DNA of 64,000 bases, taken from NCBI GenBank assembly GCA_964466035.1, contig CAYXLR010000001.1:114130-178129 (forward strand). Direction: 5' to 3'. How positions within the stretch are numbered: position 1 is the first letter of the stretch; the number at the start of each line of letters is the position of its first letter. Positions 30,734 to 32,780 of the stretch are shown here, one piece after another. The notes below the pieces were generated by a model. That model was not told where the DNA came from. It saw only the letters and a list, made by a program, of their open reading frames with translations, and ran no database searches. The position numbers and the translations under genes were made by a program. This DNA comes from an uncultured Thermotogae bacterium (GTDB lineage: Bacteria > Bipolaricaulota > Bipolaricaulia > UBA7950 > UBA9294).

Positions 30734-30750
30734 GCGCGCTCCTCACACGT

Positions 30751-30932
30751 CTACTTCTCGTCGTACTCTGCATCGATGTCTGCGCCGTCTTTCGACGGCG
30801 TCTCGCCCTTTGTCGTCGCTTCGTCGGTCGGCTCCGTCCGTTTACTTCTCGTCGTACTCCGTGTCGATGTCTGCGCCGTCTTTCGACGGCGTTTCGCCCT
30901 TTGTTGTCGCTTCGCCGGTCGGCTCCGTCCGT
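30751..30932 (-). repeat. Two 91-bp tandem units in the dnaK-dnaJ spacer, each a copy of the dnaK 3' terminus plus a GNRA hairpin
   Basis: U1 30751-30841 and U2 30842-30932 differ at 7 of 91 positions. In mRNA sense each ends ...GADID(A/T)EYDEK-stop, copying the dnaK end [13 protein letters not shown] at 30933-30965. Each has CGCCGTC-GAAA-GACGGCG (30783-30800, 30874-30891). Confidence 0.9.
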
Positions 30933-32780
30933 CTACTTCTCGTCGTACTCCGCATCGATGTAGTCGCCGTCGTCCTCGTCGTCCGAGCCCGTCTCGCCGC
31001 CGCCCGGCGCGGCGCCTCCGGTGGCCTTCTGGGTCTCCTTGTACGCCTCGGCGGCGATCTCCTGCGACGCCTTGGCGAGCTCGTCGGTCTCCCTTCGGAT
31101 GTCCGCGATGGAGGCGTTCTTGTCGAGCTTCTCCCGCAGGCGTCGGACCCGATCCTCGATGTCGGATCGCTTGGCCGCGTCGACCTTCTCGCCCAAATCG
31201 GAAAGCGCCTTCTCCACCGAGTAGATCAGTTGATCGGCCTGGTTGCGGGCCTCGACCAGCTCGCTCTTCCGCTTGTCCTCCTCGGTGTGCTCCTCGGCCT
31301 CCACCCGCATCCGCTCGATCTCGGACTCGTCGAGCCTCGAGGAGTCCTGAATCGTGATCGACGAGCTCTTCGACGTCGCCTTGTCCTTCGCGGTGACGTG
31401 AAGGATCCCGTCGGCGTCGATGTTGAACGACACGTCGATCTGCGGGATCCCGCGCGGGGCCGGAGGGAGCCCGGTCAGCTGGAACTTGCCGAGCGACTTG
31501 TTGTCGGCGGCCATCTTCCGTTCTCCCTGCACGACGTGGATCTCGACCGCCGGTTGGTTGTCCTCGGCGGTGGTGAACGTCTTCGCCTTCTCGGTCGGGA
31601 TCGTCGTGTTCCGCTCGATCAGCGGCGTCGCGACGCCGCCGAGCGTCTCGATGGAGAGCGTCAACGGCGTGACGTCGAGGAGGACGATCTCGTCGACCTC
31701 GCCGGCGAGGACGCCGCCCTGGATCGCCGCGCCGGCGGCGACGACCTCGTCGGGGTTGATCTCCCGGTTCGTCTTCTCCGGGACGCGGCTGGCGATCAGC
31801 TGTTGGACCTTCGGGATCCGCGTCGACCCGCCGACGAGAACGACCTGGTCGATGTCGTCGGGGCCCTTCCCCGCCTCGCGGAGCGTCGCGTCGACGACGT
31901 TGATCGTCCGCTGGAGGTAGTCGTCGATCATCCCCTCGAACTTGGCCCGCGACAGCTTCTTCTCGAGGTGCTTCGGCCCGCTCGCGTCCGCGGTGATGTA
32001 CGGAAGGTGGATCGTCGTCTCCATCCGGGTCGACAGTTCCTTCTTCGCCGCCTCGCTGGCGTCCTTCAGTCGCTGCAGCGCGCTCGGGTCCTTTGACAGA
32101 TCGATCCCCGTGTCCTTGCGGAACTCCTCGACGAGCCAGTCGATGATCCGCTGATCGAAGTCGTCTCCCCCGAGGCGCGTGTCGCCGTCGGTGGCGAGGA
32201 CGTCGAAGACGCCGTCTCCGATCTCGAGGATCGAGACGTCGAACGTGCCGCCGCCGAGATCGTAGACGAGGATCGTCTGATCGTGCTCCTTGTCGAGGCC
32301 GTAGGCGAGGGCGGCCGCCGTCGGCTCGTTGATGATCCGCATGACCTCGAGGCCGGCAATCCTCCCCGCGTCCTTCGTCGCCTGTCGCTGCGAGTCGTTG
32401 AAGTAGGCCGGGACGGTGATCACCGCCTTGACGACCTTCCCTCCGAGGTGCGCCTCCGCGTCGCTCTTCAGCTTCTGAAGGATCATCGACGAGATCTGCT
32501 CGGGGGTGTACGTCTCCTCCTTTCCGTCGGTCGAGATGTGCACGCGATGGTCGGTTCCCATCTCGCGCTTGATCGAGGCGACGGTGTTCTTCGGGTTGGT
32601 GATCGCCTGGCGCTTGGCGAGCCGCCCGACGAGACGCTCACCGGTCTCGGTGAACGCGACGACCGACGGGGTGACGCGTTCCCCTTCCGCGTTGGTGATC
32701 ACCTCCGGCGTGCCGGCCTCGAGAACGGCGACACACGAGTTGGTCGTCCCCAAATCGATCCCAATGATCTTCTCCTTCAT
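30933..32780 (-). CDS. dnaK: Molecular chaperone DnaK (Hsp70)
   Basis: ORF track 30933..33212 trimmed to ATG 32780 (AGGAGG upstream; ATGA overlap with the grpE stop). [19 protein letters not shown]..., [12 protein letters not shown], full-length Hsp70. Confidence 0.95.

Follow-up and report, generated by a model that had tools for sequence, protein, structure and literature searches.

Why should the space between two genes of an essential heat-shock operon be filled with copies of the end of the first gene? The question is raised by the dnaK-dnaJ spacer of an uncultured Bipolaricaulota bacterium, in a 64 kb stretch of DNA (the window) with a G+C content of 66%. The minus strand of the window carries the operon hrcA-grpE-dnaK-dnaJ, recognised from its open reading frames (ORFs) and Pfam domains, and between its last two genes lie two tandem units, U1 and U2. 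We give an even chance to the following reading of these sequences: that the spacer is a minisatellite derived from the gene end, whose array would separate dnaJ initiation from dnaK termination and would put stable stem-loops 3' of dnaK.

The dnaK coding sequence (30933-32780, minus strand, 615 codons plus TAG), established from its ORF and translation, contains the Pfam HSP70 domain and has its stop codon at 30933-30935. The genuine 3' end of the gene, X0 (30933-30971; GACGGCGAC TAC ATC GAT GCG GAG TAC GAC GAG AAG TAG), is homologous to the 3' part of each of the two units that follow it on the same strand, U2 (30842-30932) and U1 (30751-30841), as alignments and Tandem Repeats Finder (TRF) both indicate, the TRF array reaching 30961. 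Over 30748-30961, TRF reports a period of 91 nt, 2.4 copies and 91% matches. These results bear out an earlier note on this DNA, which had described the end of dnaK and two 91-bp units identical at 84 of 91 positions; five of the seven differences are silent in the tail frame, not four as it had counted. Each unit consists of a drifting 5' third, a AAGGGCGA leader, a hairpin and a tail copy with stop codon. In U2 (covariance-model match of 58.5 bits) the tail copy reads IDTEYDEK and ends with TAA, the whole tail-frame reading being RTEPTGEATTKGETPSKDGADIDTEYDEK-TAA; U1 (59 bits) has the same layout. The hairpin CGCCGUC-GAAA-GACGGCG, also correctly described in the note, occupies 30874-30891 in U2, where it comprises 7 bp and a GNRA loop (-13.9 kcal/mol), and 30783-30800 in U1. 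The stem is followed by CAGACAUCGA. Purines make up 69% of the spacer RNA as a whole and U makes up 5.5%, and each unit contributes a single stable stem-loop, some 40 nt beyond each stop. The tail copies with their stops cover 27 nt each, at 30842-30868 and 30751-30777. They had been described as 33 nt long: the copy is real, but it matches at 29 of 33 positions in U1 and 27 of 33 in U2, is near-perfect only over the last 27 nt, and grades into a weaker homology that runs through GACGGCG and the whole unit. The 18-nt tail end occurs three times where 0.06 occurrences are expected, so that the repeat is not due to chance, and an exact search of the 64 kb found the hairpin sequence only in its two spacer copies.

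Between the U1 stop and the dnaJ GTG lies a 17-nt junction, ACGUGUGAGGAGCGCGC (30734-30750), with a Shine-Dalgarno sequence (SD), GAGGAG, at 30739-30744; this too agrees with the note. The same stretch of 17-18 nt comes after the dnaK stop in the unit-free relative L012 (L-numbers denote the loci of relatives, and WIN that of the window), and the tail copy of U1 stands 17 nt upstream of the dnaJ start, just like the real dnaK stop in unit-free relatives. The dnaJ gene itself (29627-30733, minus strand, GTG start, 368 codons) is identical in L001-L006, where it carries the Pfam domains DnaJ, DnaJ_C and DnaJ_CXXCXGXG. Its initiation region, 30725-30750, is predicted to fold as ACGUGUG-AGGAG-CGCGCGU. 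The loop contains the SD, which is unpaired with a probability of about 0.97, and the stem takes in two bases of the GTG. This small hairpin is also found in L012, and the unit hairpins are at least 50 nt away from the SD. As a side observation, the initiation hairpin is a candidate coupling- or temperature-sensitive element.

Short-read assemblers can mis-join repeats, and the array of one relative, L172, contains a scaffold gap; the first possibility to consider is therefore that the tandem copies do not exist in cells. Nine contigs encode the identical DnaK protein. Of seven such places, each from a different Joint Genome Institute (JGI) sample, the six that reach dnaJ have a spacer 199 nt long, and the seventh, L007, ends within the array. 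The JGI samples with this population are 3300032029, 3300031654, 3300031551, 3300031356, 3300031650, 3300031275 and 3300032062. When 301 nt running from the dnaK tail across the spacer into the start of dnaJ were compared in the seven assemblies, zero to two single nucleotide polymorphisms (SNPs) were found relative to the window. One of them (30951, G/A) affects the third position of an Ala codon in the real dnaK tail (GCG/GCA, GCA being the variant present in U1), and another (30829, G/A) lies in U1. The recovery of the same two-unit spacer from seven independent assemblies argues against an artefact, as does the fact that U1 and U2 differ at 7 positions and are therefore resolvable in assembly. 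Homologous units are moreover present in 12 other loci, assembled by different projects. We consider the chance that the array is artefactual to be next to nil.

Relatives were sought by scanning metagenome and genome collections with the C-terminal 136 residues of DnaK, and contigs were fetched for twelve close DnaK homologues. The named homologues among the matches are 81-85% identical and are labelled Candidatus Bipolaricaulota or Acetothermia; closer matches are nameless. In 27 loci without a recognisable unit, the distance from the dnaK stop to the dnaJ GTG is 12-58 nt (12-29 nt in 24 of them), and two further relatives fetched to enlarge the sample, P0039 and P0015, have no units either. 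Eleven other lineages possess long spacers made of units homologous to U1 and U2. A single unit is present in eight of these lineages (L008, L168, L170, L175, L011, L089, L010 and L023), and L009 has three units plus a remnant. L172 has at least one unit, with a gap of 100 N (positions 3454-3553 of that locus) that begins three bases past the stop of the first unit; the assembly broke inside the repeat array there.

Copy-number change is seen between L180 and L181, which have three and two units, respectively. They encode the same DnaK, their dnaK genes agree at all 328 four-fold sites, and their dnaJ genes do not differ; L181 corresponds to L180 minus exactly one 104-nt unit, with near-identical flanks and a junction that falls inside the unit-to-unit homology. 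The array grows and shrinks by unequal crossing-over or slippage, and copy numbers among relatives run from 0 to at least 3, in keeping with the amplification by unequal crossing-over that the note had envisaged. In a rough neighbor joining tree, unit-bearing loci fall in one subclade, with the exception of L023, and are interspersed with unit-free members; L012, the sister of the unit-bearing L008, is unit-free, and its 18-nt junction is the same as that which follows the L008 unit. A covariance model of the hairpin region gave 17 matches in 12 loci, all in dnaK-dnaJ spacers, including L175, which was not used in building the model; elsewhere it matched nothing, neither in the 64 kb of the window nor in 247 kb from other loci (311 kb in total).

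The units are not uniform. Their lengths are 79, 89, 91, 93 and 100-104 nt among lineages, and their frame relative to dnaK is +0, +1 or +2 depending on the lineage; a special meaning of the 3n+1 length, pointed out in the note for the window units, is not supported. The units nearest dnaJ in L180 (3542-3677), L010 (2915-3014) and L009 (1270-1352) lack the tail copy and end with another shared segment, which in L180 and L010 is GGGNCGTAGCTGA(A/C)GGA(G/A)CCGAGGAG; because these units end differently, unit-bearing lineages do not all share one junction in front of dnaJ. The L175 unit (3343-3443) has a degraded stem, with a GACGACG 3' arm, and a 10-nt internal tandem duplication, CGCGTACATC-CGCGTACATC, just before the tail copy.

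Where does the unit come from? The answer is provided by L091, a unit-free member of the same subclade, with which the whole unit is collinear over the last 90-105 nt or so of dnaK. Even the non-tail part alone aligns to L091 better than shuffled sequences do (p<0.001 for the L168 unit, 0.002 for L011 and 0.023 for U1 of the window), and the similarity of unit peptides to DnaK linkers is marginal (p=0.02-0.15). The unit repeats, in diverged form, the last 29-34 or so codons of dnaK together with its stop, which supports the contention of the note that the copies derive from the gene and not the reverse. The alternative of a duplication spanning the dnaK-dnaJ junction, by which the 5' part of the unit would be spacer plus dnaJ start, was rejected, as local alignments were no better than shuffles in eight of nine tests. 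The sequences show the spacer to be an array of dnaK 3' ends duplicated in tandem, and its simplest history is a duplication of the last 100 nt or so of dnaK, stop included, in an ancestor of the subclade, followed by amplification. The integration scar suggested previously is not supported, as a plain tandem duplication of the gene end suffices. Every unit built in this way ends in a copy of the tail and stop, and so, whenever the array collapses, dnaK regains an intact end and the native junction of stop, 17 nt and dnaJ is restored.

The hairpin has its counterpart in the gene as well. The L091 coding sequence contains an imperfect inverted repeat, CGGCGTC-16 nt-GACGGCG, whose arms come from Ala-Ala-Ser and Asp-Gly codons. 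In the units with a long loop (L011, L089, L009 and L180) the 16-nt spacing is kept and the stem is perfect, and in the subclade of the window 12 nt have been lost from the loop, leaving the GNRA tetraloop. An imperfect inverted repeat in coding sequence (Ala-Ala/Pro-Ser ... Asp-Gly) became, in the units, a perfect G+C-rich stem-loop of 7-12 bp. None of the present dnaK tails of 53 loci has a perfect stem, L091 having an imperfect version only, and the idea that the hairpin pre-exists as a perfect stem in present dnaK tails was rejected on this basis (0/53 loci).

Conservation is concentrated in the hairpin and the tail copy. Mean pairwise identity between lineages amounts to 86% for the leader and stem and 87% for the last 27 nt, compared with 62% for the first 31 nt or so of the unit, for which shuffled partners give 51%; in the same genomes, four-fold sites of dnaK differ by 14-45%. 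Covariation in the stem was assessed on a loop-trimmed alignment of 16 units, a whole-unit MAFFT alignment having been discarded for misaligning the 3' arm of short-loop units. In total, 92.9% of stem cells are paired, and slid controls pair at 14-71%. Compensatory double changes occur at two pairs (C-G to A-U in L010, and C-G to U-A in L023), a score reached in 9 of 500 shuffles, there is one U-G wobble (in L180_3, a unit of L180), and two units contain a mismatch. Loops closed by this stem are between 3 and 16 nt long, intact stems have energies of -11 to -25 kcal/mol, and that of L172 consists of 12 perfect pairs. Together these features are modest but coherent evidence for selection on an RNA hairpin. 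They lend partial support to the selected structured spacer proposed in the note: the hairpin is conserved, with two compensatory changes, and core and tail stand far above the 5' third, but the element is absent from many members of the clade.

What the hairpin might be selected for is a separate matter. One candidate is that the hairpin and tail form a sequence-specific site of binding or cleavage, recognised by a protein, a small RNA (sRNA) or an RNase or acting as a palindromic DNA operator, and multiplied by repetition. Such a site would account for nucleotide conservation that spans the stem and about 27 nt downstream and that, in the subclade of the window, includes third codon positions, and for the conservation of the AAGGGCGA leader before the stem. 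It sits poorly with the variation in sequence and length of the loop, with the lack of a complementary partner sequence within the window and with the lack of an Rfam match, and the U-G wobble of L180_3, a single case, favours RNA over a DNA palindrome. We regard it as quite improbable. A cis-complementary partner for the tail copy was likewise rejected, none being found on the mRNA strand of the operon.

The tail copies behave in one respect like coding sequence. Between the unit tails and the tail of their own gene, we counted 24 synonymous and 10 non-synonymous differences, which corresponds to a proportion of synonymous differences (pS) of 0.47 and of non-synonymous differences (pN) of 0.035, a ratio of 0.07 (binomial p = 4e-13 against a 15% neutral synonymous share, the comparisons being non-independent). 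The stop codon is kept in 14 of 14 recognisable tail copies and in the degenerate copy of L023. This pattern would be expected if the tail copies were decoded, with frameshifting, hopping or readthrough at the dnaK stop giving DnaK isoforms with a longer linker and the same IDAEYDEK end, subject to selection at the protein level. Units in the subclade of the window would fit as well: all of them are 3n+1 long and open throughout in the tail frame, with indels in multiples of three (79, 91 and 103 nt). Against decoding, the frame relative to dnaK varies among lineages, and four units (L009_1, L180_1, L175_1 and L089_1) have only 11-24 open codons upstream of the unit stop, and no start codon. 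A conserved slippery site is lacking: in +1, AAG-UAG-A is unable to re-pair, and other lineages carry CAG-UAG-G or GAG-UAG-G. A look for the hallmarks of programmed frameshifting or readthrough in these loci returned neither a conserved shift site nor a linking open frame, and the codon before the stop is not conserved. Finally, L168 and L008 share one and the same unit tail, and where it departs from the tail of the respective gene, the change is a synonymous one on the side of the gene, not of the unit; in the subclade of the window, nucleotide-level conservation of the unit tails together with synonymous drift of the gene produces the pattern, and decoding is not required. Decoding thus appears very improbable, and a translated extension or small ORF was rejected for the inconsistency of frames, stops and starts among lineages. 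Recombinational cycling, in which tail copies pass through the position at the gene end, was rejected too as an explanation sufficient by itself for the coding-like pattern: by our reasoning it predicts a similar synonymous homogenisation, unlike the pS of 0.47.

The tails also carry traces of exchange with the gene. Their last residues co-vary with those of the gene of the same lineage (DEK, DEQ, DEE and DAE/DAK), and in three cases the copy matches the tail of its own gene without a difference, over 24 nt in L089, 30 nt in L175 and 21 nt in L170, which together point to the selected gene copy as an occasional donor in gene conversion or recombination. These exchanges are central to a neutral view of the array, namely that of an unstable minisatellite made of a functionless copy of the gene end, held in a balance of expansion and contraction, in which the 3' arm and tail copy are kept alike by conversion from the dnaK tail, and the 5' arm by correction of the hairpin-templated (quasi-palindrome) type. 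The patchy distribution with repeated clean losses, the recent copy-number change between L180 and L181, the three gene-identical tails and the shared lineage-specific last residues are all as this view would have them, as are the GAT-GCA variant of the L168 and L008 gene tails in U1 of the window and the drift of the 5' third at close to the neutral rate (5/33, against 14% at four-fold sites). Conversion alone, however, is estimated to give a non-synonymous to synonymous ratio of about 0.2-0.5, and 0.07 is observed. The L168 and L008 unit tails, mutually identical and unlike their own gene tails, were not recently converted, given that difference, and have nonetheless stayed unchanged. The 5' arm has no donor in present genes, and yet is unchanged in 13 of 17 units. 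Deletion bias, moreover, should remove a functionless insert of 100-400 nt from an essential operon, and yet 11 lineages have kept the insert, of which 10 belong to the subclade. Neutrality is in our view a real possibility, if one that falls short of probable.

We return to the insulating array with stem-loops to which an even chance was given above, and to what it would do. The array separates the dnaK stop from the ribosome-binding site of dnaJ, near-contiguous with it in unit-free relatives, by 100-400 nt of RNA that is not translated, and the final copy of the tail and stop reproduces the ancestral junction, but ribosomes translating dnaK do not reach it. The unit-free geometry, with the dnaK stop on top of the dnaJ SD, would suit coupling by termination and reinitiation. 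By moving the translated stop 100-400 nt upstream, the array would abolish this coupling, and dnaJ would then need independent initiation, at a GTG half buried in the small local hairpin with the SD exposed in its loop. The unit stem-loops could in addition shield mRNA ending with dnaK from 3'-to-5' decay, or could be points of pausing or processing. On balance, DnaK would gain relative to DnaJ, to a degree adjustable through the number of units. Intercistronic stem-loops are known to set transcript ratios in operons (PMC4423207), which is one precedent; the long dnaK-dnaJ spacer of Salmonella, with its differential expression, is another (PMC12077118). The units probably loosen the link between dnaK and dnaJ expression.

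Several observations weigh against this reading. The units are absent from at least seven members of the same subclade (L012, L091, L092, L173, L174, L177 and L178), and an element missing from so many clade members is dispensable. Two units have weakened stems, with one mismatch in L008 and a degraded stem in L175, and the stability of the spacer as a whole is unremarkable (z = -1.29). A terminator scan found no site in the spacer, where no U-run follows the hairpin and U accounts for 5.5% of the bases. Conservation of the stem could stem in part from templated repair without selection, the 3' arm and tail being converted from the gene and the 5' arm corrected against the 3' arm. Lastly, a role as insulator does not explain why an untranslated copy of the tail and stop stays conserved. 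As for other signals, an intrinsic terminator was considered and rejected: a G+C-rich stem-loop (7 bp, GNRA, -13.9 kcal/mol) is present and a U-tract is not, which makes classical intrinsic termination unlikely. No internal promoter was found in the spacer scan.

A stronger form of the idea would make the array a selected, recombination-driven rheostat of chaperone stoichiometry. The units would serve as modular insulators, their number tuned by unequal crossing-over and the tail and stop kept by selection, for perfect contraction or through partial decoding, so that the essential heat-shock operon would contain a self-repairing contingency locus. We think this unlikely.

The remainder of the operon and of the window can be described briefly. 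Upstream of dnaK on the minus strand are grpE (32777-33295, PF01025), which overlaps the dnaK start by 4 nt, and hrcA (33292-34365, PF01628). A promoter-like TTGACA-17-TACCAT followed by an operator resembling the controlling inverted repeat of chaperone expression (CIRCE), which overlaps the hrcA ATG, is found at 34352-34406 on the same strand; on the mRNA strand the operator reads TTAGCAAACTAACATGCAGAGTGCTAA, with 2 mismatches to the consensus, and is directly 3' of the promoter-like site. Two other repeats are present in the window. That at 61269-61668, apparently intergenic between long ORFs, has 121-nt units (3.2 copies, 72% matches) with inverted repeats in each, CTTGGCGCC...CTCTGCGCC pairing with GGCGCAGAG...CGCCAAG. 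That at 16465-17124 has a 264-nt period (2.5 copies, 75% matches) within a long minus-strand ORF (15513-17888), and is probably a repeated protein domain. A tRNA gene at 12905-12990 is the sole match in the window above the Rfam gathering threshold.

The locus offers a concrete case of an operon spacer built from the coding end of the upstream gene, stop included, in which an inverted repeat latent in the codons of a disordered acidic tail became a conserved RNA hairpin and then part of an array of variable copy number. If it is true that the units alter the DnaK:DnaJ ratio, they would represent a simple and evolvable way of tuning chaperone stoichiometry in an uncultured phylum, and the alleles with 0, 1, 2 and 3 units would form a natural set bearing on intercistronic distance, stem-loops and translational coupling. 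For annotators and assemblers the locus is a cautionary one, being a repeat that collapses or breaks in short-read assemblies.

How does the array compare with known systems? Long spacers between this same pair of genes, unusual for an operon, exist elsewhere: that of Escherichia and Salmonella is 85 nt long and contains the tpke11 sRNA, and that of Leptospira is 301 nt long. To our knowledge, copies of the dnaK end have not been reported in these spacers. They share no similarity in sequence or structure with the array and no Rfam match links them to it: with Rfam models, tpke11 included, the spacer gave no match at the gathering threshold, and at E<=10 only a chance match to a viral hairpin (12.6 bits). 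In Salmonella, the dnaK and dnaJ genes differ in expression across the long spacer (PMC12077118). Partial tandem gene duplications that leave a 3' pseudo-copy resemble the array in mutational origin and in having a downstream copy that is out of frame and decaying; here, by contrast, the copy is only about 100 nt long, is amplified and polymorphic in number, is retained in a clade, and has an internal inverted repeat that has been perfected and conserved.

Repetitive extragenic palindromic (REP) sequences and bacterial interspersed mosaic elements (BIMEs) differ from the dnaK-dnaJ hairpin, which is not dispersed and has no adjacent GTAG head. A relaxed regular expression gave noise, and exact and covariance-model searches, which matched the spacer only and gave just two copies within the 64 kb of this genome that were searched, led us to reject a dispersed REP-like element. 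The stem is preceded by AAGGGCGA(N2), and no GUAG is nearer to it than that of the stop region, 30 nt away on the downstream side or 41 nt on the upstream side.

A closer parallel is provided by mycobacterial interspersed repetitive units (MIRUs), tandem units of about 50-100 nt between co-oriented operon genes, which vary in copy number among strains and end in stop codons beside the downstream start (PMC12548453). MIRUs are present at many loci, however, whereas the dnaK-dnaJ units occur at one locus only (311 kb searched). The small ORF of a MIRU overlaps the start and stop of its neighbours; dnaK-dnaJ units have no constant frame and mostly no start codon, and a MIRU-like translational relay finds no match in them, most units lacking a start codon and the open stretch being as short as 11 codons. 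The dnaK-dnaJ units, unlike MIRUs, visibly derive from the 3' end of the upstream gene. The stem-loops of selective RNA processing and stabilisation (PMC4423207) are alike in anatomy: a stable, G+C-rich stem-loop devoid of a U-tract, placed directly 3' of an upstream cistron with high expression, in an operon that must supply its products in unequal amounts. The dnaK-dnaJ stem-loop differs from them in that it recurs with each copy of the duplicated gene end. The array thus combines features of known kinds, those of intercistronic variable-number tandem repeats (VNTRs) and those of stabilising stem-loops.

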